A stretch of DNA of 32,000 bases, taken from assembly GCA_934167465.1 (NCBI GenBank), contig CAKPKR010000001.1:182336-214335 (forward strand), in the 5' to 3' direction. Every line of letters begins with the position of its first letter. The first letter of the stretch is position 1. Source of the DNA: an uncultured Bacilli bacterium. Lineage in GTDB: Bacteria > Bacillota_I > Bacilli_A > RF39 > UBA660. This document shows positions 1 through 23,012 of this stretch, in pieces. A model generated the notes under the pieces. It made no database searches. It saw nothing but the letters and a program-made list of their open reading frames with translations, and was not told where the DNA came from. Position numbers and translations under genes: made by a program.

Positions 1-70
1 ACTATTTAAATTATGGTAATTAAACATTTTGTTTGGTTATATAAAAGAATAAAAAGAGGAGGTGCGATTT

Positions 71-193
71 ATGAAACAATTATTAGCTAATATTTTTGCC
101 GGTGTTGGTACTATGGCTGCTGATGGAGAATCAAGTGCATGTTTTATGTGGTTTATTGATGAACCAGAATGTCCAAAAAGTTTAATTAAATAA
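71..193 (+). CDS. agrD: AgrD-like autoinducing-peptide precursor (40 aa; too short for the ORF track)
   Basis: ATG at 71 lies 8 nt after GGAGG (58-62). Translation is MKQLLANIFAGVGTMAADGESSACFMWFIDEPECPKSLIK. It has a hydrophobic N-terminus, a single internal Cys, and a C-terminal IDEPECPKSL tail resembling the conserved AgrD DE.EVPKEL recognition tail. Confidence 0.7.
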   Translation: MKQLLANIFAGVGTMAADGESSACFMWFIDEPECPKSLIK

Positions 194-202
194 TTATATT
201 AT

Positions 203-236
203 AAAAAGTATAACGATTCGTTATACTTTATTTTTT
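203..236. terminator. Bidirectional rho-independent terminator between convergent agrD and the kinase gene
   Basis: 10-bp inverted repeat AAGTATAACG (206-215) / CGTTATACTT (219-228). An A-run lies upstream and a T-run downstream. It overlaps the kinase stop codon. Confidence 0.55.
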
Positions 237-1525
237 ACATATAATTTTTGAATATAATAAATACCACTAATTTCTCTTGATTGTGATAAACAATCAGTTT
301 TTTCAATTAAGTCTTTAGCTAAAGCTAATCCATAACCTTTCCCCTCGCCTTTAGTAGAGTAACCTTCTTTGTCTATTTTATCAATAATTATTTCATTACT
401 ATACGTATTTGATATTTTAAATACGGTATTTTTATCTTCAACGTATACTTCAAATATTATGTATTTTTCTTTAGATTGTTCTGACGCTTCAATTGCATTA
501 TCTAAGTATACTCCTAATATTTTACTAACACTTTGTAAGTTTTTGTCACAATTAAGCCAATATTTTGAATCTTTTAATTCACTAGATACGTCTATAAATA
601 TATTTAATTTTTTCTTTTTCATTGTATCAATTTTATAATGAATTAATCCTTTTAAACCACCTTTAGGTATATACATTAATTTATTATCAATTTCTAAATC
701 CTCTTCTGTTTCATTATCTAATAAGGAATCAATGTATTCGATTGTTTTTTTATTTTTAACCATCAATCTTATTACTGCTAACTGATTCTTGTATTCATGT
801 TGGTTTTTACTTTTTTCATCTAATAATTTTTCATATGTTTGAACATAATCTAATAATTGATCATATTCATATGTTATCTTGTTCTTAGAAGTTTTTTCTT
901 TAAAAAATCCTATTATAAATATAAAAACACCCGCACAAAATAAATTTGTTAGAATCATTACTGATGGTGGCAAAATATTTATAAAATTATTATATAATGC
1001 AAATATAAAAATTGTTAAGATTACAAATACAAAAAATATAAGACTTTTATATTCGTTTTGATTATACCATTCCATAATATGATTGGTTAAATTTCTAACA
1101 AATCCGATTCTACTTATCAAATAGCATATAAATAAAACCAAAATATTCAATAATAAATAGTAAATGTAATTATTATTTATTGTAGAAAAATCAGTTTTAA
1201 ATGCCAAAATTCCTATAGTCCCAACTACAAATTCTGATATGAATGACATAGCAACTATAATTAAAAGTCCTAACAATGTTTTAATCAATTTTTGCTTATA
1301 TAAAATAAGTAACGTTACAAATACAAACAAATGCGTTATATATGGCCTTATATATGCCAAATTATTAATGCTGCTAATTAAACAAATTAATGAAACAAAT
1401 AAAATACTTAATATAATATTTTTATAATTAAATTTAAATTTCTCTTTGCATACCATCGTACAAAATAAATAACTATATAAGAAAAAATACAATACACCAC
1501 ATATAAACCAACTAACAATTAACAT
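221..1525 (-). CDS. AgrC-like (HPK10) membrane sensor histidine kinase
   Basis: 434 aa. The N-terminal ~200 aa are polytopic and hydrophobic. It has an H-box HEYKNQL, an N-box LDNAIEA and a G-box GEGKGYGLALAKDLI. Its start overlaps the stop of the upstream LytTR regulator gene. Confidence 0.8.
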   Translation of the reverse strand: MLIVSWFICGVLYFFLYSYLFCTMVCKEKFKFNYKNIILSILFVSLICLISSINNLAYIRPYITHLFVFVTLLILYKQKLIKTLLGLLIIVAMSFISEFVVGTIGILAFKTDFSTINNNYIYYLLLNILVLFICYLISRIGFVRNLTNHIMEWYNQNEYKSLIFFVFVILTIFIFALYNNFINILPPSVMILTNLFCAGVFIFIIGFFKEKTSKNKITYEYDQLLDYVQTYEKLLDEKSKNQHEYKNQLAVIRLMVKNKKTIEYIDSLLDNETEEDLEIDNKLMYIPKGGLKGLIHYKIDTMKKKKLNIFIDVSSELKDSKYWLNCDKNLQSVSKILGVYLDNAIEASEQSKEKYIIFEVYVEDKNTVFKISNTYSNEIIIDKIDKEGYSTKGEGKGYGLALAKDLIEKTDCLSQSREISGIYYIQKLYVKNKV

Positions 1526-2225
1526 AACCTTTAAGTCCTTTCTTCTTATCTCTTGATACTAAATTCATAGATGTTCCATTTTTAAAATATACAATACTAT
1601 CTTTCCAAACTACATGATCTATATTTGTCAAATTTACTAAACAACTTCTATGACATAAATAAAAGTCACTACCCAACTCTTTAGATAATTCATTCAAACT
1701 TTTATTAGTAATAATATTGCGATTAACTGTATGAATAATACATTTTCTATCAACAGTATCTCTTTCAATATATAAAATATCTGATAAATATACAATATAA
1801 GTTGTACCACTCGTATCAAACTTTATAACTTTTTTCTGATTAACTAATTCTAAAGCTTTATTTATTGCTCTTTCCAATGACTTATTACAATCATCAAACT
1901 TTGATACAAAATCTAATAGCATTATTTGTGCTTTCATAGCCTGATAACCTAACTCATTATGTGAAGTAACTAATATTATGATACTATCCCAATCATATCT
2001 TCTAACTTTTCTAGCAATATCAATACCTGAAATACTATTTTTAATTTCAATATCCAATATGTAAATCTTTGGAGATTTTTTATTGATAAGTTTCTCAAAA
2101 CCTTTGTTATAAGAATCAAACTCATAAATTTTATAATCTTCGTTATTCTTCATATAAATTTTATCAATAATTTTTACAACATTACTTCTGAATACTTTCT
2201 CATCATCACAAACCACAAACTCCAT
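1512..2225 (-). CDS. LytTR-family response regulator (AgrA-like)
   Basis: 237 aa. The receiver domain shows VVCDDE and ILDIEI. The C-terminal LytTR domain shows the FYLCHRSCLVNLTNI motif. Confidence 0.85.
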   Translation of the reverse strand: MEFVVCDDEKVFRSNVVKIIDKIYMKNNEDYKIYEFDSYNKGFEKLINKKSPKIYILDIEIKNSISGIDIARKVRRYDWDSIIILVTSHNELGYQAMKAQIMLLDFVSKFDDCNKSLERAINKALELVNQKKVIKFDTSGTTYIVYLSDILYIERDTVDRKCIIHTVNRNIITNKSLNELSKELGSDFYLCHRSCLVNLTNIDHVVWKDSIVYFKNGTSMNLVSRDKKKGLKGYVNC

Positions 2226-2274
2226 TGTTTCATCCCTCTACTCTTTAATATTTAAGTATTTACTATCCGTTAAC

Positions 2275-2303
2275 ATAATAGCACATTCATCATTAAATTT
2301 CAA
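2275..2303 (-). promoter_or_regulatory. Candidate sigma-A promoter for the regulator/kinase operon
   Basis: On the minus strand, TTGAAA (2303-2298), a 17-nt spacer, then TATTAT (2280-2275), about 50 nt upstream of the start at 2225. The AT-rich background makes chance matches likely. Confidence 0.3.
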
Positions 2304-2308
2304 TAAAC

Positions 2309-2341
2309 CTAAAAAAATAATGTCCATACAAAGACATTATT
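2309..2341 (-). terminator. Rho-independent terminator after the AbiEi-like gene
   Basis: 9-bp stem AATAATGTC (2316-2324) / GACATTATT (2333-2341), followed by a T-run on the minus strand (A-run 2311-2315 on plus). Confidence 0.5.
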
Positions 2342-2883
2342 TAACTTAATACTTCTCTCTTAATTCTGTCTACAATTTTTGGATCTTTGAAATTAATAAT
2401 ATACTCGTTTAATTTGTTTTTATTTAATAATTTTGATATTCTCTTGTAATTATTGATAATTTCATGATAAGATTCAAAATCCATATTTTTTTTATTTCTT
2501 ACAACATCAATCAATAATCGTTCCAAATCATATATCAAAATATTAAATCCTTGATAAGTTATTTTGCTAATACCAGTATTATATAATTTATCAGTAGTGA
2601 AAATTTGTTTAATATATTCATCTTTTATTTTTCTATCTTTTTGTTTAGTAGCTATAACATATGGAATTTTATTTTTACTAATAAGTCCATAACAATATGC
2701 AGCTGTCTCAAGAGTAAAAACTGCATTAGGATGCTTTACAGCAATAACCTCTAGATAGTTATAATTTAATTTATCAGAATATATACCTTTTTTAACAACA
2801 TACAACTTATTTTCATTAACCATTTTTTTTATCTGATAATCACTAAAACCTTTTTTAGTTAAATCAGTATACAAATATACCAT
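2341..2883 (-). CDS. AbiEi-like (type IV TA antitoxin family) DNA-binding protein, no adjacent AbiEii
   Basis: The N-terminus DLTKKGFSDYQIKKMVNENKLYVVKKGIYS resembles the AbiEi_4 winged-helix signature (G..rv.rGiY). The likely start is the ATG at 2883 (GAAGGTGA SD), not the track start at 2928. Confidence 0.45.
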   Translation of the reverse strand: MVYLYTDLTKKGFSDYQIKKMVNENKLYVVKKGIYSDKLNYNYLEVIAVKHPNAVFTLETAAYCYGLISKNKIPYVIATKQKDRKIKDEYIKQIFTTDKLYNTGISKITYQGFNILIYDLERLLIDVVRNKKNMDFESYHEIINNYKRISKLLNKNKLNEYIINFKDPKIVDRIKREVLS

Positions 2884-2946
2884 ATTTTCACCTTCATAAA
2901 TTATACTATACAATAAAGTTAAATTCAATACATTACCTACAAAAAA

Positions 2947-5517
2947 TTAAATTGACATTGAGATATTTTTCTTTTTACATATATATTTTCTAACCCAATC
3001 AATAGGTATTATAGTAAAGGAAATAAAGATAATTAATAATAATTCAGAAATAGTGAGTCCGGCTGTTCTAAATAAATTTCCACCATAATAAATTAAAACT
3101 AATTGAACTACTATTATTAAAAACATTATAAATAAGAATACTTTATTCTTTAACAAATTAGCAAAAATATTAATTCTTGTAGTTCTAACATTGAAAGAAT
3201 TAAATAAGCAAGTAAAAATAAATAACCCAAAAAAAGCAGTCATAAAATATATATCTTGAACATTATCTCTAAATAATGATTTAAAAAATGGAACTTTTAA
3301 AAATAAAATACAAAGAATTGTTAAATAAGAACCCGCCATAAAAACCTCGGTTAACATATATTTATTAACAATTGATTCATTTTTTTTCTTTGGTAATTCA
3401 TTCATATATTCAATTAATGGTGGCTCAAATGAGAACGCTAATCCTGCTAAAGTATCCATAACCATATTTACCCATAACATTTGAATAACTGTTATTGGCG
3501 TCTCTACTCCTATAAATGGTCCAATTATTGATAAACATATTGCGCACATATTTACTGTTAATTGAAATACAATAAATTTTCGGATGCTTTTGAATATTGT
3601 TCTACCAAACAATATTGCCTTTGATATTGATAAAAAATTATCATCTAAAATAACGATATCAGCAGCTTCTTTAGCAACTTCAGTTCCGCTTCCCATAGCA
3701 AAACCAACATCTGCTTGTTTTAAAGCAGGAGCATCATTAACACCATCACCAGTCATACCGACTACTAAATCTAATTCTCTTGCAATTCTAACAAGTTTAC
3801 TTTTATCTTTGGGGAGAGCTCTAGCAACTATCTTTATTCTTGGAAAAATTTGTTTTAACTCTGCATCTGATAATTTATTTAACTCTTCACTTGTAATTAC
3901 AATTGAATCCTTGTCCAACATTCCTAATTCTTCGCCTATTGCTTCAGCTGTATTTTTATTATCTCCTGTAATCATTATTGTATTTATATGAGCGTTTTTA
4001 ACTAATCTTATTCCTTCTATTGCTTCTTCCCTAATTTCATCTTTAATTGCAATTATACCGACTAAACAATAATCGTTTTGGCTTAAATCATATGAATCAT
4101 TTTGAGCAATTGCTATCAATCTATTTCCTTTTTTTGCTAACGCCTCAATTGTATTTGTTATTTCTTTTTTATTGTATAAATATTTTTTAGAACCCATTTT
4201 ATTGTAATATCTAGTACACATTGGAATTATTTTTTCAGGAGCTCCTTTTATTAATTTGATTTTTTTATCCTTTTTAATTATTGTCTCCATATATTTGTTT
4301 TTACTATCAAATGGAATAGTTTCCAATATTTCATATTTTTTAATATTATTACCTATATATTTAAGTAATGCTCTATCTGTACTATTACCACCAACTATTT
4401 TTTCTTTACTGTATTCACTAGAATTATTATATAAAATAGAATCAATTACAATTGTTTTTAATTCACCATCAATAGTGTTTAAATTACCATAGTAGTTTAA
4501 ATTACCATCAATAAAATTTGTAACTTCTAATTTTCCTTTGGTTAAAGTACCTGTTTTATCTGTTAATAAAACATTAATATTACCAGCTGTTTCAATTCCC
4601 ATCAACTTTCTAACTAAAACATTATTTTTTAACATTTTTTTCATATTTGATGATAATACCAATGTTATCATCATTGGTAAACCTTCAGGAACTGCTACAA
4701 CTATTATAGTAACTGATAAGGTTAAGGCGTATAAAATATGTCCAATTAGTAACGGAACATTTGTAATTGTATTGATGATTGCATCAATATTAAAATTATT
4801 TTGAATTACTATTTCTGAAAATAAATATGCAAATGATACTAATATTGCACCTATATATCCGATTTTACTTATTTGAGCCGCTAACTCAGTTAGTCTTATT
4901 TTCAATGGACTATCAGGACTTTTAGTTTTTAATTCGGTTGCCACACTACCATACATAGTATTTTTTCCTACTTTTTTTACTAACATTTTTGCTCTTTTGG
5001 AATACACAACTGTTCCCATATATAATTCATCATTTTTATTTTTATTTTTTTCCTTTGATTCACCGGTTAGTAAAGATTCATCTACTGATATATTTCCATC
5101 TATTAATATTCCATCTGCTGGAATTTTATCACCTGTTTCTAAAACTACTATATCGTTTACTACTACTTCTTCAATATTTATTTCTTTTATTTTATTGTTT
5201 CGAATTACTTTTGTTTTAATTTTTGAAGATTCTTCTTGCATTCTTTTAAAGGCTTGTTCACTTCCATATTCAGATATTGTTGATATAAATGAAGCAATAA
5301 AGATTGCTATTACTATTCCAACAGTTTCATACCAGTCAAAATTTTTTATTAAAAATACTGTTTTAATTCCTAATGCGATTAATAAAATTCTAATTATTGG
5401 ATCGCTCAATGATTCTAATAGTAACTTCCAGAAACTATTATTTTTACTATCCATTAAAATATTTGAGCCATATTTTTCTCTATTTATTTTTACTTCTTCT
5501 TCTGTTAGTCCTGTCAT
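2947..5517 (-). CDS. Cation (Ca2+-type, P2) P-type ATPase
   Basis: 856 aa with TGES, DKTGTLT, TGDN and GDGVNDAPALKQADVG motifs. It has about 10 hydrophobic segments. Confidence 0.9.
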   Translation of the reverse strand: MTGLTEEEVKINREKYGSNILMDSKNNSFWKLLLESLSDPIIRILLIALGIKTVFLIKNFDWYETVGIVIAIFIASFISTISEYGSEQAFKRMQEESSKIKTKVIRNNKIKEINIEEVVVNDIVVLETGDKIPADGILIDGNISVDESLLTGESKEKNKNKNDELYMGTVVYSKRAKMLVKKVGKNTMYGSVATELKTKSPDSPLKIRLTELAAQISKIGYIGAILVSFAYLFSEIVIQNNFNIDAIINTITNVPLLIGHILYALTLSVTIIVVAVPEGLPMMITLVLSSNMKKMLKNNVLVRKLMGIETAGNINVLLTDKTGTLTKGKLEVTNFIDGNLNYYGNLNTIDGELKTIVIDSILYNNSSEYSKEKIVGGNSTDRALLKYIGNNIKKYEILETIPFDSKNKYMETIIKKDKKIKLIKGAPEKIIPMCTRYYNKMGSKKYLYNKKEITNTIEALAKKGNRLIAIAQNDSYDLSQNDYCLVGIIAIKDEIREEAIEGIRLVKNAHINTIMITGDNKNTAEAIGEELGMLDKDSIVITSEELNKLSDAELKQIFPRIKIVARALPKDKSKLVRIARELDLVVGMTGDGVNDAPALKQADVGFAMGSGTEVAKEAADIVILDDNFLSISKAILFGRTIFKSIRKFIVFQLTVNMCAICLSIIGPFIGVETPITVIQMLWVNMVMDTLAGLAFSFEPPLIEYMNELPKKKNESIVNKYMLTEVFMAGSYLTILCILFLKVPFFKSLFRDNVQDIYFMTAFFGLFIFTCLFNSFNVRTTRINIFANLLKNKVFLFIMFLIIVVQLVLIYYGGNLFRTAGLTISELLLIIFISFTIIPIDWVRKYICKKKNISMSI

Positions 5518-5589
5518 ATATATTCCTCCTAATAAATTTTATTAGAAAGATCTTTTTTTATAATTAAAAGTAATCGACAAAAATTTTAA

Positions 5590-5615
5590 AAAAAAGAAAA
5601 CTGTTTAAAGTTTTC
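5590..5615 (-). terminator. Rho-independent terminator after the thioredoxin-like gene
   Basis: Stem GAAAACT (5596-5602) / AGTTTTC (5609-5615) with a T-run on the minus strand (A-run 5588-5595 on plus). Confidence 0.5.
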
Positions 5616-6292
5616 TAACAAGCATCATCGCAAAATATTTCAAATGTCTTATTTAAATAATCATAATATATTGTTTTTAATTCCTCGTATTGTTCTTTGT
5701 TTAAACCATCATATGGGTTTTTTTGAGATTCAACTGTAGAATTGTGTAATCCAATTATTTTTCCATTTTTTACAAATAAAACAGTTGGAAAATATAATCT
5801 CTTAATTGTTTCATCATTTAAGCCATCATAAACAGGTAAATAATCATATAATAATTCTACTAATTCTTTGTATTCTTTTGTTCCTTCTTCTTCGACAACG
5901 ATATTTCCACTTTCATCTAGTGTTTTTTTATCTCTTATTGAAAGTGCATTATAATAATAAATTTTTTCAATTCCCAATTCTTTAGCAGTATCTAATAATA
6001 CAGGAACAGCATTACGACACCAAGGACATTCTGGAAATCCAAAATAAATTACCGCTGTATCATTTTTTATTAAATTTATTACTTTATCATAGTCAGCATA
6101 AACTATTGGATTTATTTTATCTATATTTACTTTAATATATTCTTTTCCATTTTTGTTTTTTGTTTCATTTAATGATTCATATTCTTTTTTAAATTTAATG
6201 GCGTCATTATCTTCTTTTTTATATTTAAATCCTATTATAAAAATACATATGATTGCCATTAAAGATATTAAAATTACTTTAAATTTATCCAT
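5615..6292 (-). CDS. Membrane-anchored thioredoxin-fold protein (CxxC)
   Basis: 225 aa. It has an N-terminal transmembrane helix (VILISLMAIICIFIIGF) and an FPECPWCRNAVPVL CxxC motif. Its start lies 9 nt after the Abi_2 stop and has its own AGGAG SD. Confidence 0.6.
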   Translation of the reverse strand: MDKFKVILISLMAIICIFIIGFKYKKEDNDAIKFKKEYESLNETKNKNGKEYIKVNIDKINPIVYADYDKVINLIKNDTAVIYFGFPECPWCRNAVPVLLDTAKELGIEKIYYYNALSIRDKKTLDESGNIVVEEEGTKEYKELVELLYDYLPVYDGLNDETIKRLYFPTVLFVKNGKIIGLHNSTVESQKNPYDGLNKEQYEELKTIYYDYLNKTFEIFCDDAC

Positions 6293-6301
6293 ATAACTCC
6301 T

Positions 6302-7237
6302 TTATTTAATTTCTAATATTTGTCTAAAATTACTAGGAAAACCAATTTTATTTAAAATTGTTTCAACAGGTACTGTATCTACTTTTCCATCCAAGATATC
6401 TATTTCATAACTTATTTGATTCATTAAGTCTCTAAATTCTCCTTCTGTAAGCATTATTTTTAAAATTATCATCACAGCAAATAAATCATTTTTGCCATAT
6501 ATATATTCATCATCTACCATTGGAATTTCTAATATATGGTGATATTTAGTATTTGGAATACACCTTTGTGTCCTGTGATCATATAAAATATCCTCATGAG
6601 CACACAAATTGCGGAAATTTGATAAGATAGCTAGATAAGTTGACATTGTTTCTGGGTCAATGTGATAAATATCTGCTATATTAATTTGATCATCCACTTT
6701 TAATATTCCGTATAGTTCAGTTATAATTCCAAACGACAATACTTTTACTAAAATCCACATTGGGATATATCCATAGTTCATTATATAATGGGATGTTGCA
6801 GCATGTTGTTTTCCGTTTATTCTTATTTGCCTTTTCATTTTATTTAATACATCATATACTTGTCTTACTTTCATATTATCTTGAATAAAGTTTTTAGGAT
6901 TTAAATAATCTTTCTCTTTAAAACCATATTTTTTTGACATTTGGTAGCTTATTATTGATTTAATATTATTTTCTACAATCAAAATAAATTTAAACATTAT
7001 GTTTCTTATATTGCGATCAAAAATAAATGTGGCATATAATTCTTCAAATCTTGTACCATATATAAACACATTTGGTTTATTATTTTTTTGAAATAAATGA
7101 CGATATCCACTTATAAAAAAATAATTTTCTCTAAATAATATTTCTTTTGCATTTTCAATATCATTAATAATTAATCCTTTATTTTTTAATATTTCTATTT
7201 GTTCATCTAAGGTTTTAAAGGTTTTTTGTCTCCCCAT
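6302..7237 (-). CDS. Abi_2 (AbiD/AbiF-like) abortive-infection family protein
   Basis: 311 aa. The N-terminus TLDEQIEILKNKGLIINDIENAKEILFRENYFFISGYRHLF and the later CAHEDILYD region resemble the Abi_2 family pattern. Recognised by eye only. Confidence 0.6.
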   Translation of the reverse strand: MGRQKTFKTLDEQIEILKNKGLIINDIENAKEILFRENYFFISGYRHLFQKNNKPNVFIYGTRFEELYATFIFDRNIRNIMFKFILIVENNIKSIISYQMSKKYGFKEKDYLNPKNFIQDNMKVRQVYDVLNKMKRQIRINGKQHAATSHYIMNYGYIPMWILVKVLSFGIITELYGILKVDDQINIADIYHIDPETMSTYLAILSNFRNLCAHEDILYDHRTQRCIPNTKYHHILEIPMVDDEYIYGKNDLFAVMIILKIMLTEGEFRDLMNQISYEIDILDGKVDTVPVETILNKIGFPSNFRQILEIK

Positions 7238-7364
7238 AATTAACCTCCTTACTATATTTATTATACCATTTATTATTTATATTGTGAATTAGTTTTTTTA
7301 TATATAATGTAATTAACATAGCAATATTTTTAAATAAAATTATTTTATTAATTTATAAAATTAC

Positions 7365-7910
7365 TTATTTGAAATAAGACAAGGTAGCAGAAACTATTGT
7401 TTCAGCTATTTTATTTTGATATATTTCTTGTTTTAAAAGATATCTTTCATTTGGGTTACTTAAAAAACCTACTTCTAATAGTATACCTGGAACTTTCAAT
7501 CTTTTTTGCAAATAAAGAGTATTATCTTTTTTATATTTTCTTGTACTATTCAAGTTTTTTTTGAATTCTTCTTGAAATATTTTAGCTATTTCAATGTTTT
7601 TTTCATTTTTATCAGCATAGAATGCTTGAGCACCTCTATAAGTATTTGTTTCTTCAGCATTTAAATGAATTGATAAAAATAAATCACAATCTGATTTATT
7701 AATAATATTACTTCTTCTTGATAAATCACTTCTTTTTCTATTTATAGTATTATTTACTGATAAATCATAATCTCCATATCTTGTCATATATACTATAGCG
7801 CCTAGTTTTAATAATTTTTCTTCGATTTTTTTACTTATTTCTAGATTAATATCTTTTTCTTTGATTTCACCATACATGGCACCGGGATCCAAGCCACCAT
7901 GTGCAGGCAC
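7365..7910 (-). CDS. cwlD: 3' segment of the split germination-specific N-acetylmuramoyl-L-alanine amidase CwlD (Amidase_3)
   Basis: AHGGLDPGA..., SIHLNA..., GAQAFY... and EVGFLSNPNE motifs follow the CwlD/Amidase_3 layout. The reading frame opens only at a GTG (7910) directly after an in-frame TAG. The signal/TM N-terminus is missing here and is found at 14136-14270. Confidence 0.8.
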   Translation of the reverse strand: MPAHGGLDPGAMYGEIKEKDINLEISKKIEEKLLKLGAIVYMTRYGDYDLSVNNTINRKRSDLSRRSNIINKSDCDLFLSIHLNAEETNTYRGAQAFYADKNEKNIEIAKIFQEEFKKNLNSTRKYKKDNTLYLQKRLKVPGILLEVGFLSNPNERYLLKQEIYQNKIAETIVSATLSYFK

Positions 7911-7928
7911 TTGCTAAATCCAAATTTA

Positions 7929-8762
7929 TTATTTCATTTCTATTTTTTCTTGATAATGTTTTTCTTTTTCTAATTCTTTTAACGATTTTTTAGGTGTTGG
8001 TAATTTTTCTGGCATTGTTCCATCATTTTTTGTAATTACCTCTCTAATATTTTTTCCAATATTATAATGTGTTTCGTTAGCATCTTTTTCACTAGATATA
8101 TTATCTCTTTTTAGTTTTGATTCAGTTTGAGTTATACGGAAAAGGTTAGCTGCTAATTCTTCACTACCCATATTATCTAAAATATCTTCACGATATCTTA
8201 AATTTTTTCTTTTAGCAATATCATTTGCAGTTTCACCATTATATAATCCTTTATATCCTGCATTATGAAATTTATCAAAATTTTTAACTCCACACTTTTT
8301 AGCAACTTGATTTAAAGAGTAATTACCTTTTTTAGTTAAACTTCTTTGATAAAATCTTTTTTCATCTTCAGTTAACATAGAATACTCTTTTTCAGTTAAT
8401 TCTTGACGTCTTGTTTGTACTGCAAAATAAGTTTGACCTAAAGCAACAACTTCTTTTCTAGGATCTGAATTTTGTACAATAAGATAACAAGCATATCTTG
8501 ATAACTTATAATCTTCAATACTTCTTGATGTTTTAGAACCAATACTTACCATTTTGTCAACGCCGACAAAATGGTCTGTGATACTAATTCCACTATTTAA
8601 ACAAGCTTCTTGTGCTTTTGTAATTACGCCTTTAAATTTTCTCCATTCCTTATAATCTAAAGCAATTTTTAATTCTCTTGCTAACCAATATTCATTACCA
8701 TATTCATCTATATGTTTAATATTTTCAAATATTGTTTCATTATATTCTTTAATTTCGTTCAT
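7929..8762 (-). CDS. DinD-like (DNA-damage-inducible protein D family) protein
   Basis: 277 aa. YWLARELKIALDYKEWRKF, ITDHFV, KLSRYACYLIVQNSDPRKE and GQTYFAVQTRRQE resemble the E. coli DinD family as I recall it. Confidence 0.6.
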   Translation of the reverse strand: MNEIKEYNETIFENIKHIDEYGNEYWLARELKIALDYKEWRKFKGVITKAQEACLNSGISITDHFVGVDKMVSIGSKTSRSIEDYKLSRYACYLIVQNSDPRKEVVALGQTYFAVQTRRQELTEKEYSMLTEDEKRFYQRSLTKKGNYSLNQVAKKCGVKNFDKFHNAGYKGLYNGETANDIAKRKNLRYREDILDNMGSEELAANLFRITQTESKLKRDNISSEKDANETHYNIGKNIREVITKNDGTMPEKLPTPKKSLKELEKEKHYQEKIEMK

Positions 8763-8822
8763 CCATTACCTCCTATTTTTCGGTATTCCTTATTTTGTAG
8801 AAAAGTCCAAATCATTACTTTA

Positions 8823-16260: not shown

Positions 16261-17124
16261 CTATTTTTCGTATCTTGTAACTATCCCACAAGGCAATATT
16301 AAATTTGAATTTTTTATCGGTAATCCAATTTCATCTGAATAAATTTTTCCTGGGTATTTTTTACCAAGTGTTAATTTTAATATATTATTCATTACTTCCA
16401 TTGATAATCCTGTGGTATAAGAATTTATTATAAAGAATAGCGGATCATCTGATAGTATTTCCATACAAAGCTCTACTAAATTAAATAAATCTTTTTCTAT
16501 ATCCCAAACTTCACCATTGGATCCTCTTCCATAACTTGGGGGGTCCATTATTATAGCATCGTATTTATTTCCTCGTCTAATTTCTCTTTTAACAAATTTT
16601 ACAACATCATCAACTAAATATCTAATTGGTTTATCTTCTAGACCAGATGAAACAACATTTTCTTTAGCCCAATCAACCATTCCTTTTGATGAATCAACAT
16701 GTACTACACTTGCTCCAGCTGATAAACAAGCCACACTTGCTCCACCAGTATAGGCAAATAAATTAAGAACCTTTATTTCTCTATTAGATTCTTTAATTTT
16801 ATTTATCATAAAATCCCAGTTGGCAGCTTGTTCAGGGAACAAACCTGTATGTTTAAATCCCATTTGTTTTATATTGAATGTTAAATCTTTATATTTTACT
16901 TGCCATCTGTCTGGTGTTTTTTTTAGATTTTCCCAATAGCCTCCACCTTTATTACTTCTATGATAATGTGCATTAATATTATCATATTTTTCTAATAAAT
17001 CTCCGTTATTCCATATAATTTGTGGGTCTGGTCTAAGTAGGATAATATTGTTCCATCTTTCTAGTTTTTCACCATTAGATGTATCTAATATTTCATAATT
17101 TTTCCATTCATTACTTACTATCAT
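16261..17124 (-). CDS. Class I SAM-dependent methyltransferase (RlmI/YwbD-like, Methyltrans_SAM type)
   Basis: 287 aa. VLNLFAYTGGASVA is a motif I-like block and IIMDPPSYGRG is a DPP motif IV-like block. Confidence 0.7.
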   Translation of the reverse strand: MIVSNEWKNYEILDTSNGEKLERWNNIILLRPDPQIIWNNGDLLEKYDNINAHYHRSNKGGGYWENLKKTPDRWQVKYKDLTFNIKQMGFKHTGLFPEQAANWDFMINKIKESNREIKVLNLFAYTGGASVACLSAGASVVHVDSSKGMVDWAKENVVSSGLEDKPIRYLVDDVVKFVKREIRRGNKYDAIIMDPPSYGRGSNGEVWDIEKDLFNLVELCMEILSDDPLFFIINSYTTGLSMEVMNNILKLTLGKKYPGKIYSDEIGLPIKNSNLILPCGIVTRYEK

Positions 17125-17610: not shown

Positions 17611-18462
17611 TTAAAATAATTTAATATTATCCCAACGAGTTAATCCATTCTGTAAATTTAAATTAACCTGTCTTTGAACTTCATCGTAATTTGAACCTAA
17701 TGCTTTTCTTCTATCAGCACCATTTCCAAAATCACCTCTGATTGTTTTCTTTACTAATGTTAATAACTCATCATTTGAACTATTTGAAGCAGGTGTATTA
17801 CTTGCCATCTTATTATTAACTATTTCTTGAATTGCATTATAATCATATCCAGCATCTGTTAATCTTTGTTTTCTTTCAGGATTGTTTCCCCATTTGCCTT
17901 GAATAACTTCATTTGCAATTTCTTCATTAGACTTACTTGGTGTTGGTGTTGGAACTGGTTCTACATAATGAACATCACCAATAGCAGGATTGACAATGCA
18001 TCCTCTAAAAGTATAACCACTACCTAAGCCCCATCTACCATTTGAATTAGTTCTTACACTATTCCAAAATGCAGTTCTTGAACCATAACCACTTTCTGAT
18101 GTAAGTATTTTATTTGCACCATCTATTCTTTCAACTACTGCAACATGACCTGCACCATCATTTCCACTTAATGTAGCACCTTTTTGCCATACCATAATAC
18201 CACCTAATGTTGGATATGATACAACGGTTAAACCACATTTTTTTGCCCTTTCAATAAAATTTTCAGCATTACAGTTTAAATAAGGATACTTCATGCTACC
18301 TATAATTTCATTAAAACGACCACAGGCATAGCCTACACAGTTAGCAAGTACATTACAACCTGCATCTGTTGGACTACCTTGTATACATTGACTATAACCA
18401 CCTCTTGAAGTAGTATTATAAAATTTATTACCTGCTGATGGTTTACTTGTTCTCATTTCCAT
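17611..18462 (-). CDS. Endolysin: N-terminal CHAP peptidase plus two CW_7 (Cpl-7-type) cell-wall-binding repeats
   Basis: CHAP Cys/His blocks are NCVGYACGRF and GHVAVVE. The C-terminal repeats are IANEVIQGKWGNNPERKQRLTDAGYDYNAIQEIVN and LVKKTIRGDFGNGADRRKALGSNYDEVQRQVN. The best start is ATG 18462 (GGAGGTGA SD). Confidence 0.85.
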   Translation of the reverse strand: MEMRTSKPSAGNKFYNTTSRGGYSQCIQGSPTDAGCNVLANCVGYACGRFNEIIGSMKYPYLNCNAENFIERAKKCGLTVVSYPTLGGIMVWQKGATLSGNDGAGHVAVVERIDGANKILTSESGYGSRTAFWNSVRTNSNGRWGLGSGYTFRGCIVNPAIGDVHYVEPVPTPTPSKSNEEIANEVIQGKWGNNPERKQRLTDAGYDYNAIQEIVNNKMASNTPASNSSNDELLTLVKKTIRGDFGNGADRRKALGSNYDEVQRQVNLNLQNGLTRWDNIKLF

Positions 18463-18598
18463 CTTCACTCACCTCCTCTTGATTTTCGATTGTACAATCT
18501 TCACCATTTACTAACACATCCAATGCATCAGTATTAAAAGTGTCTTGTACTTCCATTTCTTCTTGAACTTCTTCTGTTAATACTTCTTTTTCTTCCAT
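18443..18598 (-). CDS. Small highly acidic hypothetical protein (51 aa) between holin and endolysin
   Basis: The ATG at 18598 is preceded by AAGGAGGT. Translation is MEEKEVLTEEVQEEMEVQDTFNTDALDVLVNGEDCTIENQEEVSEDGNENK. Its end overlaps the endolysin start. Confidence 0.35.
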   Translation of the reverse strand: MEEKEVLTEEVQEEMEVQDTFNTDALDVLVNGEDCTIENQEEVSEDGNENK

Positions 18599-19302: not shown

Positions 19303-20442
19303 TTAATGTGAATTTTGTGAATTATTATTTAAAAACAAATCATTGAATACTTTGTCTAAATTTTTTATACTTTTATAACAATCATATTTTTGAATATTAC
19401 CTTTCCAAGATTTATATTGTTCCTCAATATCATGAAAATCAATCAACCCTTTATCTAATAGATTTTTAAAACTTTTTAGTTTTCTTCTTTCTCTGATAAA
19501 ATTCTTTTTCACAGGTATTCTTACTAAATGCCCAGTATCTGTTAATCTATATTTTATTTTTAAAAAGGTAAAACCCTTATCTAACCTAAATAATTGTGTT
19601 TTCTTATGATTTATAAAAATTCCTTGTTTTTTACAGATTTTATCAATATCATCCAATAAAGATTTTAATTCTTCTTTACTATTTCCAATTATATAGGTAT
19701 CATCCATATATCTTCCATAGAATTTAATACCCTTAACAATTTTACAATAATTATCCATCTTACTTGGATAATAAATTCCTGATATTTGAGATATTTGACT
19801 TCCTATACCTAATGATTTATGCATCATTTTTTCACCTGTTTTTTCAGTTTCTGCCTTAGCATAAGCAAGTGAGTCAAATAATTCATTTTCCGTAATATTA
19901 TAATTGGATATATCAACAGAGAAACTATCAACTAAATGATTTATTAAATTAATAATATCTTTATCATCAATAATCTCTCTGTACATATCCATTAAAGGTT
20001 TATGAAGTATATTATCATAAAACTTACTAAAATCAATAACGAGTGCATATCCTTTATTCCCATATTTCCTATAATATTTATGCAAATGATTTTCTATTCT
20101 TCTTCTAGCAAAATCAATTCCTTTTTTCTTCACACTTGCACCATTATCATGTATTAAATATGGTTCAACTATGGGATTAACTAAATCGCACAAAGCCCTT
20201 TGTACAACTCTATCATAGAAACTTATGGAGCGAACATATCTATCTTTTCCTCTTTCTTTAAGATAAAAGCAATAAAAATCTTGTTGTCTATATGTTTTTT
20301 CTCTTAATTCTAACTGCGTGTGTCTAATATTTTTCAAAAAATTGGCTTCATATTGTTGAACACTATTTTTCCAACTACAACCTTTTTTGGCTTCGTAAAA
20401 ACTATTCATTAAAACATTGGCATTACTTATCTTATTTATCAT
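19303..20442 (-). CDS. Diversity-generating retroelement reverse transcriptase
   Basis: 379 aa. It shows RT motifs including SFYDRVVQRAL, the DGR-diagnostic IGxxxSQ block (LGIGSQISQISG) and the YMDD catalytic box (GRYMDDTYIIG). It has no maturase or endonuclease domains and lies immediately downstream of the TR. Confidence 0.9.
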   Translation of the reverse strand: MINKISNANVLMNSFYEAKKGCSWKNSVQQYEANFLKNIRHTQLELREKTYRQQDFYCFYLKERGKDRYVRSISFYDRVVQRALCDLVNPIVEPYLIHDNGASVKKKGIDFARRRIENHLHKYYRKYGNKGYALVIDFSKFYDNILHKPLMDMYREIIDDKDIINLINHLVDSFSVDISNYNITENELFDSLAYAKAETEKTGEKMMHKSLGIGSQISQISGIYYPSKMDNYCKIVKGIKFYGRYMDDTYIIGNSKEELKSLLDDIDKICKKQGIFINHKKTQLFRLDKGFTFLKIKYRLTDTGHLVRIPVKKNFIRERRKLKSFKNLLDKGLIDFHDIEEQYKSWKGNIQKYDCYKSIKNLDKVFNDLFLNNNSQNSH

Positions 20443-20648
20443 ATTTTGTTCCTAACTCTAATTGACTTATCAAAGAGTATCAAAATATCCATTTGCCTTT
20501 CGGACAGGATAAAGTTTCCTTTTAATTATCGCAACGGTACTTAACCTAATCATTGTGCGAGTTAAAATCAGGGGCGAACACCACCAGTAGCAGAAGCATT
20601 GTTGTTGTTGCTATTACCATTGTTGTTGACATTAGCGAAACAGGAAGC
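20443..20648 (-). ncRNA. DGR template RNA region (TR plus TR-to-RT spacer)
   Basis: This non-coding interval lies between avd and the RT gene and contains the TR. The ~120-nt spacer includes a GNRA-type hairpin TG(T)CC-GAAA-GGCA (plus-strand complement within 20493-20505). The RNA boundaries are not determinable from sequence. Confidence 0.55.
20556..20648 (-). repeat. DGR template repeat (TR)
   Basis: 20568-20648 aligns without gaps to 21285-21365. There are 13 mismatches, all where the minus-strand TR has A, out of 21 TR adenines. All 60 non-A positions are identical. The TR reads ...GCT AAT GTC AAC AAC AAT GGT AAT AGC AAC AAC AAC AAT GCT..., with 9 AAY codons. Confidence 0.9.
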
Positions 20649-20664
20649 CCAGTAAATACAAACT

Positions 20665-21213
20665 TTACCCTTTTTCTTTATCTAATTCTTTAAATATTTT
20701 ATTATCTGATTTTCGCCAACCTTTTAATAACACAATTTCTTTTTCAATGATATCAACATACACCATGTATTTTTCCACATTCGGATGGCATACACAAATT
20801 ATATATTGCATCTCTTGAAGAAGATTTTCACAATTACAAATTGCTTGTGTTTGATAGTTTCTTCGCATATAGTATTCTTCTTTATTGGTTATATGAATTG
20901 TATTTGCTGAACAAATATTTTTCATTAATTCCCTCAATAAATCCATGAAGTAATCTCTTTCTTTATCTATTAGCCAACTTGGAAAATTGTCAATGAAACT
21001 ATTTTTTATATCGTATGCTGACAATATTTCTTCAATTTCAGAAACATCAGCATCAGTCATATCATATACATCTTTTGCAAAATCTAAATTTCTTCTTCTC
21101 GATTTTATTCCAAAATCTTTTAAAAGAAATTCGGTTATCATAAGCCTTAATTTTATAGCATTATGATAAAATTCCATTTTTGATATGTTTCTTTTTCTTT
21201 TCAATACACTCAT
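20665..21213 (-). CDS. avd: Avd-like accessory variability determinant (helical bundle), atypically long
   Basis: It sits between the target gene and the TR, as in canonical DGRs. It is basic and helical, with FYHNAIKLRLMITEFL, ...ICSANTIHITNKEEYYMRRNYQTQAICNCENLLQEMQYI and ...IEKEIVLLKGWRKS. The likely start is ATG 21213 (AGGGAGGA SD), not 21252. Confidence 0.6.
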   Translation of the reverse strand: MSVLKRKRNISKMEFYHNAIKLRLMITEFLLKDFGIKSRRRNLDFAKDVYDMTDADVSEIEEILSAYDIKNSFIDNFPSWLIDKERDYFMDLLRELMKNICSANTIHITNKEEYYMRRNYQTQAICNCENLLQEMQYIICVCHPNVEKYMVYVDIIEKEIVLLKGWRKSDNKIFKELDKEKG

Positions 21214-21242
21214 TATCAATTCCTCCCTCGACATCTTTAACC

Positions 21243-21259
21243 CACCCCACAAGGGGGTG
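21243..21259 (-). promoter_or_regulatory. GC-rich hairpin just downstream of the VR (candidate DGR target-recognition hairpin)
   Basis: The 6-bp all-Watson-Crick stem is CACCCC (21243-21248) / GGGGTG (21254-21259) with a 5-nt loop. It lies 10 nt after the target stop codon and stands out in an otherwise AT-rich region. Confidence 0.5.
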
Positions 21260-21269
21260 TGATTAAAGA

Positions 21270-23012
21270 TTAGTCGATATAAAAGCAGGGGCGAACACCA
21301 CCAGTAGCAGAAGCAAAGTAGCTGGAGCTACCACCATCGTTGCCGACATCAGCGAAACAGGAAGCATTTGTAATATTTCTTAACCAATACCAATAAGACC
21401 TATTTGTAATAAATTCAGGTGCTAATCTAAATAATGGTAATTGACAATTATCACTACCAGTTTCATATCCACTAGATGACCAAACAATAGAACCAAAGAC
21501 TTGAACTTCATTCATTAAATCAACTTTTCTACTATACCATGCCCAGTCATTAGAACAGCCACTATTTATTCCATATCTATTATATCCTGTTGCATTGATA
21601 CCTTTTGTAAGCAAATTTCTAATTTCTATTACATGACTACCAAATACCGGAGTTATATAAGTATCTAATATGCTAGGTAATGTATTTGTATACATCGAAC
21701 TAGCAACATAACCACCAACAGTTGTATTACTAGAATTCATCTGTGCAGTTGTCAAGTGCTTATCAGGAACAATTATTGCATGATGCTTCGTTAATTCGGT
21801 GTCCCCCTTATGTAAGTATACATCAAAACCTGCAATTCGCCAAGTGATATTGTTTTTTACGATATAATCACCTACAAATAAATCTTCAAAACTACCATTT
21901 GAAATTCTAGTAAATAATGAACCATCAGTTAAATAACTCGTTACATTTTTACCTCTAAAAATAGAATTATGATAACCAGCAACAGATTTATTGGTTAAAT
22001 CCTCAAATTTACCACCTGTGGCGATTGTTTTAATATTATCTAATATATTCTTATATGCAGTAGTAAATGAAGCAGTAATGCCATCTAAAATAGATTTATT
22101 GCTATGTGTGTGTCTATTAGCAGTATTGGTATCTAAATTACTTTTGTCAGTAGTGGTAAAACTGGCTGTTGTACCATCTAAAACAGACTTATTTGTATGT
22201 GTATGCCTGTTAGAAGTGTTACTATCAACCTTATTTTTATAATCATTAGTAAAATCATTTGTACTTAAGCCCTTACCACTTGTTTTTTCCTGATAAACAC
22301 CATTTTTTACATTGAAAGTAAGTTTTCCATTAACGGTTTTTAACTCTAATGTTTTACCATCAGCATAATATTCATTGACCAGTTCTGCGACAGGTATTTT
22401 TATTGTGTCATTATTTGCTAATACCAATACTAAATTTTCAGTACTACTATCATAATGTCCACTTTTTATTAACATTTCTAGTGGTAAATCGATTTTTACA
22501 GTAGAATTGTCTTTTTTTGTAAAGGTCAATACACCATTTGTAGCATTATACGACACATCTTTAAATACACCATCCATTGTTGCAAGTGTAGTTTCAATTT
22601 CTTCTTTTAAAGATATAACCTCTGTTATTAAACTATCTAATATTTGATAATTTTCTTCTTGAACAACTTCATCATCCATATCTAATTGACCATCTACAAC
22701 CGATATATTTCCTTTTGCAGTATTTGTCAATCTACTATCACTACCATATAATGCAACACTAAATAAATACTTACCTACTTCATTAAAAGCCATATTTTTT
22801 TCAAATGTTACTTTATTATTTTTTATCTCACTTACAAAATGTAAGCCACTAGGCTTCACCATATAAAACATTGCTTTTGAAAAATCTGTTTTACTTAATT
22901 GAAAATTAAATTCAATTGAATTATAATCACCTTTTACAATTTTTATTTCATCAGATGTTATACTATCACTTTTTTCAAAATTAACTAAAATATCAAATTT
23001 TTTATTTTTCAT
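21270..23012 (-). CDS. Tail fibre / receptor-binding protein, DGR target (BppU-like N-terminus; C-terminal lectin-fold-type variable domain)
   Basis: 580 aa. The N-terminus FDILVNFEKSDSITSDEIKIVKGDYNSIEFNF looks BppU-like. There is a KGLSTNDFTNDYKNKVD fibre motif and two 31-aa NRHTH.NKS.LDG repeats. The C-terminus ends GGVRPCFYID and carries the VR. Confidence 0.85.
   Translation of the reverse strand: MKNKKFDILVNFEKSDSITSDEIKIVKGDYNSIEFNFQLSKTDFSKAMFYMVKPSGLHFVSEIKNNKVTFEKNMAFNEVGKYLFSVALYGSDSRLTNTAKGNISVVDGQLDMDDEVVQEENYQILDSLITEVISLKEEIETTLATMDGVFKDVSYNATNGVLTFTKKDNSTVKIDLPLEMLIKSGHYDSSTENLVLVLANNDTIKIPVAELVNEYYADGKTLELKTVNGKLTFNVKNGVYQEKTSGKGLSTNDFTNDYKNKVDSNTSNRHTHTNKSVLDGTTASFTTTDKSNLDTNTANRHTHSNKSILDGITASFTTAYKNILDNIKTIATGGKFEDLTNKSVAGYHNSIFRGKNVTSYLTDGSLFTRISNGSFEDLFVGDYIVKNNITWRIAGFDVYLHKGDTELTKHHAIIVPDKHLTTAQMNSSNTTVGGYVASSMYTNTLPSILDTYITPVFGSHVIEIRNLLTKGINATGYNRYGINSGCSNDWAWYSRKVDLMNEVQVFGSIVWSSSGYETGSDNCQLPLFRLAPEFITNRSYWYWLRNITNASCFADVGNDGGSSSYFASATGGVRPCFYID
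21273..21365 (-). repeat. DGR variable repeat (VR) at the 3' end of the tail-fibre gene
   Basis: This is the counterpart of the TR (offset +717). It encodes ASCFADVGNDGGSSSYFASATGGVRPCFYID*. The variable codons correspond exactly to TR AAY/A-containing codons. Confidence 0.9.
22038..22223 (-). repeat. Tandem 93-nt (31-aa) repeat inside the tail-fibre gene
   Basis: SNTSNRHTHTNKSVLDGTTASFTTTDKSNLD is followed by TNTANRHTHSNKSILDGITASFTTAYKNILD. The DNA copies are offset by 93 nt (for example ccatctaaaa at 22081 and 22174). Confidence 0.6.

Follow-up and report, generated by a model that had tools for sequence, protein, structure and literature searches.

The 32,000-nt stretch of contig CAKPKR010000001.1 analysed here (the window, to which all coordinates refer) very likely carries a complete diversity-generating retroelement (DGR) at positions 19303-23012. 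The prophage in which it lies is of siphovirus type, and the host is an uncultured gut member of the class Bacilli with very AT-rich DNA. The cassette genes and repeats are read on the minus strand, in the order target gene, avd, template repeat (TR), 120-nt spacer and reverse transcriptase (RT) gene, and the element is very probably functional. An earlier note on this DNA had proposed a complete and apparently active DGR that diversifies the fibre of a prophage. The first part of this proposal is supported by a TR and a variable repeat (VR) that differ only at adenines, by the position of the VR in a fibre gene, by an Avd-family gene, a DGR-type RT, a box resembling the initiation of mutagenic homing (IMH) site with a hairpin next to it, and by related copies. 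As to activity, rewriting of the VR is seen across near-identical copies, but present activity of the window copy goes beyond this evidence.

The minus-strand sequences 20568-20648 (TR) and 21285-21365 (VR) align without gaps at an offset of 717, as had been claimed. In the computed alignment, 13 of the 81 nt differ, and the TR base is an adenine in all 13 cases (A>G in seven, A>T in four and A>C in two). This segment of the TR comprises 21 A, 21 C, 16 G and 23 T, and its 60 non-adenine positions are all identical to the VR, so the recount returned the same adenine-only mismatches as the first reading; the hypergeometric probability of 13 of 13 mismatches falling on A is 5.4e-10. The homology continues for another 5-6 bases at its 3' end, as far as 20563 or 20562, and thus covers 86-87 nt. 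Read in the frame of the target gene, the TR contains nine AAY codons; 12 of the mismatches are at the first or second position of eight of these nine codons, and the third positions are unchanged in the VR. The nine AAY codons, the VR codons opposite them and the C-terminal peptide ...CFADVGNDGGSSSYFASATGGVRPCFYID* were all found as previously listed. The TR sits within the 222-nt gap between avd and the RT gene and contains in-frame stops. Its mutagenised part measures 35-48 nt and its conserved flanks 15 nt and about 30 nt. Among 372 DGRs, the mutagenic part spans 30-100 bp and the flanks 5-30 and 20-40 bp (PMC5758913); the lengths observed here are within these published ranges, and the description of the TR as unusually short was therefore not borne out. 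The theoretical repertoire, about 6e11 protein variants (15^9 x 4 x 4), likewise falls inside the published range for DGRs, 1e5 to 1e30.

To this pair we added those of related loci: eight from species-representative genomes (RT 66-92% identical; metagenome-assembled genomes (MAGs) of uncultured Clostridium, Bacilli and 'Tenericutes'), eleven IMG/VR contigs, and ten human-gut contigs (L020-L029) obtained by a look-up of the exact RT protein. Each locus of the first two sets has its own TR/VR pair except L003, in which the VR is lost. Over 21 distinct pairs, mismatches occur at 208 of 445 A sites versus 4 of 1235 non-A sites, the 208 including 21 fixed TGA/TGC differences that are described below. 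The RT protein and the TR of L009 and of L020-L029 are identical to those of the window. Seven of the identical-RT contigs show 23-32 nt differences from the window in 7 kb. Of these differences, 12-14 fall in a 35-nt block of the VR, none in the TR and one or two in the remainder of the segment from the fibre start to the RT stop; L009 follows the same pattern, its differences being concentrated in the VR. The comparison of VRs in related prophage copies, which the earlier note had recommended, thus revealed VRs that differ at A sites and a constant TR. The exact RT protein was found on 42 contigs, whereas the exact fibre protein was found on two.

Since copies with different VRs have diverged by about 1 nt outside the VR in the 3.7-kb cassette, their rewriting is very recent. 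The VR has been rewritten recently and repeatedly in this lineage, an observation that applies to the lineage and is no proof of present firing in the window copy. A DGR that was formerly active in the lineage and is silent in this copy, with the VR as a record of past homing, is in our view unlikely. It would agree with L021, which has exactly the VR of the window, and with the existence of a decayed relative, L003, which lacks the target gene up to the IMH box. However, the RT, Avd, TR, spacer RNA elements, IMH box and hairpin of the window are all intact and the same as in copies with different VRs, and the small divergence of such copies outside the VR also speaks against it.

The proteins lead to the same positions. 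The C-termini of 61 of 62 fibre homologues are distinct, and across these 61 the entropy reaches 2.3-3.4 bits at exactly the nine AAY positions (residues 555, 557-559, 561 and 563-566). At the AGC codon the residue is S or G and at the ACT codon T, A, V or R, both with low entropy, and the remaining positions from residue 553 to the C-terminus have low or zero values. The expectation that variability is limited to roughly ten C-terminal codons was confirmed in the 62 homologue C-termini, where it involves the AAY, AGC and ACT codons only. Upstream of the AAY block, residues 546-552 show about 0.2-1.3 bits between lineages. The non-A flanks differ between lineages, yet the TR and the VR of each element share one version, as a transfer of information from TR to VR would produce. 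An ordinary hypervariable fibre tip, shaped by recombination and positive selection and placed beside the repeat and the RT by coincidence, might be considered, given that phage fibre tips are often hypervariable and mosaic and that the N-terminal modules of the homologues are indeed shuffled. We regard it as extremely improbable, because the restriction of variation to TR adenines, the fixed third positions of the AAY codons and the co-variation of TR and VR at non-A sites are unexpected under either process.

The 3' border of the exchange could also be recognised. The 14-mer GGTGTTCGCCCCTG has a G+C content of 71%, compared with 26.5% for the window as a whole. Two occurrences were counted in the window, one in the VR and one in the TR, versus 0.01 expected by chance. 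As no third copy was found, the element has a single target. Variation at A sites 3' of this box was seen in none of the related copies. The 13th mismatch lies just beyond it, where A at 20568 (TGA) in the TR is opposite C at 21285 (TGC) in the VR, and it is the same in all 21 distinct pairs. Internal A sites vary freely, and beyond the TGA/TGC site the TR and VR bases diverge. Being identical in every copy, this site is a fixed IMH*/IMH difference and not a product of mutagenesis; the TGA lies beyond the 3' limit of information transfer. The earlier note had pointed to this TR stop opposite a VR cysteine as unusual. The mismatch is indeed present, but it is not a trace of mutagenesis, and the stop is without consequence because the TR is untranslated. 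In published DGRs, mutagenesis ends on the 3' side at the GC-rich start of the IMH, beyond which the TR has a non-identical IMH* (PMC5758913); the TGA/TGC site and the GC box fit this picture.

The VR is directly followed by a hairpin or cruciform whose DNA fold has an energy of -16.1 kcal/mol (z = -6.2); none of 200 shuffles was equally stable. The corresponding hairpins of the related loci were compared by folding each sequence, as their alignment was too poor for pair counting, and an equivalent fold was present at every related locus despite changes in the stem sequence. The lower stem carries compensatory differences among loci (ATCTTTAA/TTAAAGAT, ATCCTTAA/TTAAGGAT and ATCTGCA/TGCAGAT), and at the most distant locus (L008) the stem sequence is wholly unrelated and the fold is kept. 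The loops have 5 nt in all cases (CTTGT, TTTAT or TTTAC). A GC-rich inverted repeat downstream of the IMH is found in only about a third of DGRs (PMC5758913). In Bordetella phage BPP-1, the hairpin/cruciform is required for efficient homing, and the hairpins of phage DGRs typically have GC stems of 7-10 bp and GRNA tetraloops and lie 4-34 bp from the VR (PMC3240598).

Two structural changes were noticed among the related loci. In L003, an uncultured Bacilli MAG, avd, TR and RT are intact and unrelated sequence takes the place of the fibre gene as far as the IMH 14-mer (L003:5000-5160); this is a decayed or rearranged copy with its breakpoint at the homing site. In L010 (1300-1400) and L011, the VR is one codon longer than the TR within the AAC/AAT run, an indel of the type reported for other DGRs opposite AAC repeats.

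The region from the avd 3' end to the RT start was aligned for 12 distinct sequences, and the structure proposed for it was tested for covariation. In this structure, 99.4% of the cells are paired and 13 pairs show compensatory changes, a score that none of 500 shuffles reached; in slid controls, pairing fell to 37-48%. The long-range 11-bp duplex that brackets the TR is paired in 132 of 132 cells over the 12 sequences, with compensatory changes in three pairs. The short stem further downstream has one compensatory change, C-G to U-A, and its loop is GAAA or GAGA in all copies. The spacer RNA is therefore a scaffold supported by covariation, which is a new observation. A first model with a local TATCC/GGATA stem was dropped: this stem never covaried and was only 85% paired, and it was replaced because the long-range duplex between avd and spacer is 100% paired and carries compensatory changes. 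An Rfam scan of the whole window gave nothing at gathering thresholds, including no group II intron or retron RNA, which places the TR and spacer outside any known RNA family. The cryo-EM structure of the BPP-1 DGR RNA contains an Avd-binding stem-loop just after the TR, a 3' RT-binding stem-loop, and the 'cPRT Stop', composed of an 11-bp avd:Sp duplex, a tetraloop stem-loop and A-minor adenosines (bioRxiv 10.1101/2023.10.23.563531). The layout found here parallels that RNA, and by analogy its elements may have corresponding functions.

The VR is located at the 3' end of the tail-fibre gene, as proposed (21280-21365 within 21270-23012), and this gene directly follows the tail genes DUF859/phrog_372 and Prophage_tail. 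Close homologues of the fibre (88-98% identity) are plentiful in gut metagenomes, with one 90%-identity cluster of 887 members, and more distant ones keep the C-terminal 250 aa and vary in their N-termini (Mtd_N, YadA_head, Phage_fiber_rpt). The shaft contains a 93-nt (31-aa) tandem repeat at 22081-22254, in 1.9 copies (…NRHTHxNKSxLDGxTASFTT…), and the homologues group at 549, 580 and 611 aa, lengths consistent with the presence of the 31-aa unit once, twice or three times.

PDB sequence searches with the fibre and its profile gave no meaningful match. The AlphaFold2 (AF2) model of residues 330-580 has a predicted local distance difference test score (pLDDT) of 89, with predicted strands at 552-556 and 562-566 and a turn at 557-561, so the variable residues are predicted to lie on a beta-hairpin. 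Among predicted viral structures, this tip model matched many gut-phage DUF6273 proteins, down to 1e-27 for uncharacterised relatives; the Pfam DUF6273 score on residues 538-580 is 18.1 bits, below the 23.5-bit cut-off. In published work, DUF6273 is a C-lectin-like DGR target of gut phages with the VR on a surface beta-hairpin (PMC10743442, PMC11792537). Mainly on structural grounds, the tip domain appears to be DUF6273-like. The C-type-lectin fold anticipated for this region was recovered only loosely: direct matches to lectins are weak, but the model of residues 330-580 contains a DUF6273-like domain, which is C-lectin-like according to PMC10743442. Foldseek with the tip model gave no match of the Mtd, TvpA or formylglycine-generating-enzyme (FGE) type. 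Its only significant PDB match (tip model of window 21273-22025) is the IgA peptidase of Thomasclavelia ramosa (9qa6, 2.7e-5), whose N-terminal domain is annotated DUF6273 (PMC12402451).

The accessory protein matches phrog_3206, 'Avd protein of DGR', with an E-value of 9.6e-5, and 53 of 54 aligned homologues of the accessory protein match phrog_3206 as well (best 1.7e-14). In the AF2 model (pLDDT 84.5) the accessory protein forms four long helices, the first two of which are separated by an insertion (residues 32-78). By fold, it is closest to the helical bundles 2rld and 2gsc of the 23S-rRNA-IVS/S23 family (probability 0.97-0.99, E-values about 0.5-1), to which BPP-1 Avd also belongs. At the sequence level, searches of the PDB with the protein and its profile gave no meaningful match. 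The typical Avd has 128 aa and a mean isoelectric point (pI) of 9.5 (PMC5758913); the protein described here is unusually long and near-neutral, a new observation, and its pI without the acidic insertion is 8.75. Over 200 metagenomic homologues, about 179-200 aa long, have kept the insertion. A near-neutral Avd of about 180 aa with an acidic insertion, together with a compact spacer RNA, could define a distinct Avd/RNA subclass of DGRs in phages of uncultured gut Bacilli and Clostridia, in which the insertion would provide an RT/RNA contact that the BPP-1 complex lacks; we put this forward as a speculative and rather unlikely idea. A bolder variant, in which the DUF6273 tip binds something besides a bacterial receptor, is less likely still.

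The order target-avd-TR-RT, the commonest DGR architecture, was found as claimed, with gene calls, Pfam and PHROG matches and the position of the TR in agreement. The RT contains the two motifs reported for it, IGxxxSQ as IGSQISQ (residue 213) and YMDD (residue 245); [LIV]GxxxSQ, of which IGSQISQ is the SQ variant, together with YxDD is typical of DGR RTs. Its best PDB sequence match is 8ub7_A (3e-14), identified as BPP-1 Brt by tblastn of the aligned 8ub7 segment; group II intron RTs match at 6e-7 or weaker. The nearest deposited phage RTs are 26-36% identical and include those of the DGR-carrying phages Roseburia Shimadzu, FP_Brigit, nd12 and Vibrio VP585. The cassette DNA had no match among 50,697 deposited phage records. 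The motifs, the best solved match and the nearest phage RTs together support a DGR-type RT. An RT of another class (retron, group II intron, or abortive infection and defence) that is unrelated to the repeat has only a minute probability: an Abi_2 gene is present elsewhere in the window and NCBIfam gives matches to group II intron RT/maturase (74.9 bits versus a cut-off of 300), Drt3a, Drt5 and retron RT, but these scores are all far under the cut-offs, Rfam detects no group II intron or retron RNA in the window, the SQ motif and the closest solved relative of the RT are of the DGR kind, and the RT gene lies immediately 3' of the TR and the Avd gene.

Several observations weigh against the assignment to a complete, functional DGR. 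The contig L021 is identical to the window throughout, VR included. The identification of Avd depends on a single PHROG family and on fold matches with weak E-values (0.5-1), Pfam and NCBIfam scans of the accessory protein matched no Avd model, and with a pI of 6.8 this protein is not basic, unlike typical Avd (PMC5758913). In addition, the 5-nt hairpin loop (CTTGT, TTTAT or TTTAC) departs from the GRNA tetraloop of BPP-1-like phage DGRs (PMC3240598), and the similarity of the tip to classical C-type lectins or Mtd is weak (Foldseek probabilities 0.1-0.75).

A mechanism for the DGR can be modelled on BPP-1. A transcript that runs from the 3' end of avd through the TR and the 120-nt spacer would fold into the 11-bp duplex bracketing the TR, the post-TR stem-loop, the GNRA stem-loop with its adenosines, and the terminal hairpin. 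The RT and the Avd-family protein would then copy the TR into cDNA with misincorporation opposite adenines, and the cDNA would replace the VR of the fibre gene, targeted by the GC-rich box and the post-VR hairpin. The nine AAY codons would be randomised and AGC and ACT would change less, affecting residues 555-566 and 570 of the predicted tip beta-hairpin; receptor binding and host range would presumably be retuned by this process. How the cDNA is primed, what each RNA element does, the complex of Avd with the RT and the fibre's ligand are all inferred from the analogy with that phage.

The features of the cassette and of the adjoining prophage genes are listed in the table. No tRNAs were found in the window. 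A host using genetic code 4 (TGA = Trp) was considered and dropped, as the phage genes are all intact under table 11.

Features of the DGR cassette and of the surrounding prophage (window coordinates)
Feature	Position	Strand	Remarks
Tape-measure-sized open reading frame (ORF)	26898-29366	minus	first in the listed gene order
230-aa ORF	26209-26901	minus	gene list
Prophage_tail endopeptidase	24557-26218	minus	domain match
DUF859/phrog_372 tail protein	23027-24544	minus	domain/PHROG match
Target gene, 580-aa tail fibre or receptor-binding protein	21270-23012	minus	31-aa repeat in shaft; C-terminal 250 aa a DUF6273-like globular domain
VR	21280-21365	minus	last 29 target-gene codons, short of the final three; hypervariable block 21316-21350
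IMH-like GC-rich box GGTGTTCGCCCCTG	21286-21299	minus	VR 3' end; TR/VR homology decays just beyond
Hairpin/cruciform	21228-21277	minus	directly after VR, spans target stop codon; apical stem CACCCC/GGGGTG, 5-nt loop CTTGT
Avd-family gene, 182 aa	20665-21213	minus	four-helix bundle with 47-residue acidic insertion (residues 32-78); ribosome-binding site GGGAGG before ATG at 21213
Long-range duplex, 5' strand GGGTAAAGTTT	20660-20670	minus	covers avd stop codon; 11 bp with 20507-20517, bracketing TR
TR	20563-20648	minus	non-coding; nine AAY codons + AGC + ACT = 20 mutable adenines; IMH*-like box 20569-20582
Stem-loop directly 3' of TR	20529-20560	minus	3 of 5 outer pairs with compensatory changes
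Long-range duplex, 3' strand AAACTTTATCC	20507-20517	minus	within spacer
Short GNRA-capped stem-loop GTCC-GAAA-GGC	20495-20505	minus	followed by AAA 20492-20494
Terminal spacer hairpin	20455-20478	minus	just before RT ribosome-binding site; 9 pairs, 5 with compensatory changes, 100% of cells paired
RT, 379 aa, DGR type	19303-20442	minus	RVT_1 6.5e-19; phrog_1423 7e-73
XhlA-like and holin-like small ORFs	between RT and endolysin in gene order	minus	
Endolysin	17611-18468	minus	

Outside the prophage, positions 1-17124 of the window are a patchwork that includes a GHKL kinase and a LytTR regulator, a P-type ATPase, a sigma-70 region 4/GcrA-like protein, Abi_2 (6302-7237), a large serine recombinase with DUF4368 (8823-10415) and an rve transposase (14854-15456); this part may include a second mobile element. 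In the identical-RT copies (L020-L029, about 7000-9140; window 16261-17124), the gene sets found just after the endolysin differ: a SAM methyltransferase with an rve transposase (the window type), a Zip transporter, PBECR3 with Zn_dep_PLPC, Abi_2 with a trypsin/PDZ protease, or ribosomal S15 with PNPase. Such variety suggests more than one integration site, or a cargo end that varies. The PNPase gene next to a near-identical prophage copy matched, at about 90% identity, only proteins named 'MAG: Bacilli bacterium'. Zn_dep_PLPC genes adjoin two copies and might suggest a Clostridium perfringens-like host.

Among known systems, the prototype DGR of BPP-1 (mtd-avd-TR-brt) has the same gene order, and in both elements the VR is at the extreme 3' end of a tail-fibre gene. 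They also share an AAY-rich TR, a GC-rich IMH box followed by an inverted repeat, an RT with IGxxxSQ and YMDD, the 11-bp duplex between the avd 3' end and the spacer, a tetraloop stem-loop followed by adenosines, and a stem-loop just after the TR. In contrast, the similarity between the RTs is low (E-value of only 3e-14), the Avd described here has 182 aa, an acidic insertion and a pI of 6.8 whereas that of BPP-1 has 128 aa and is basic, the tip is DUF6273-like instead of the Mtd C-lectin domain, the hairpin loop has 5 nt and is non-GRNA, and the host is a Gram-positive-type gut bacterium of 26.5% G+C.

A second group of relatives is formed by the Faecalibacterium prophages Lelie, Roos and Pioen (PMC11792537) and the phages nd4 and nd12 (PMC10743442), which are also temperate phages of the human gut. 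Their DGR targets end in or contain a DUF6273 C-lectin-like domain with the VR on a surface beta-hairpin, and the RT of nd12 is among the deposited RTs nearest to the one described here. However, RT identity to this group is only about 30%, there is one target here and not two, the Pfam DUF6273 match is below threshold (18.1 versus 23.5 bits), and the host lineage is an uncultured one of the Bacilli. The closest RTs in the deposited phage collection, those of Roseburia phage Shimadzu and Acutalibacter phage Fontainebleau (35-36% identity over 86-98% of the protein), are too distant to belong to the same element.

These comparisons show a DGR of the standard kind, with a DUF6273-type target on a temperate siphovirus, a combination already well documented in gut phages. 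It is mildly atypical in its long near-neutral Avd, its 5-nt hairpin loop and its uncultured gut Bacilli host of 26.5% G+C. Apart from DGRs, no natural system that directs hypermutation to chosen proteins is known from prokaryotes, and the richest source of DGRs is the phages of the gut. The understanding of how DGRs work is left unchanged by this element, whose value is that of a well-documented example and of a lead on an atypical Avd. The dozens of metagenomic copies with identical RT and TR and different VRs constitute a clean natural experiment. The element is also a candidate model system: it is compact, it belongs to a low-G+C Gram-positive-type host, and covariation directly reveals its RNA scaffold, which allows a comparison with the cryo-EM model of BPP-1.

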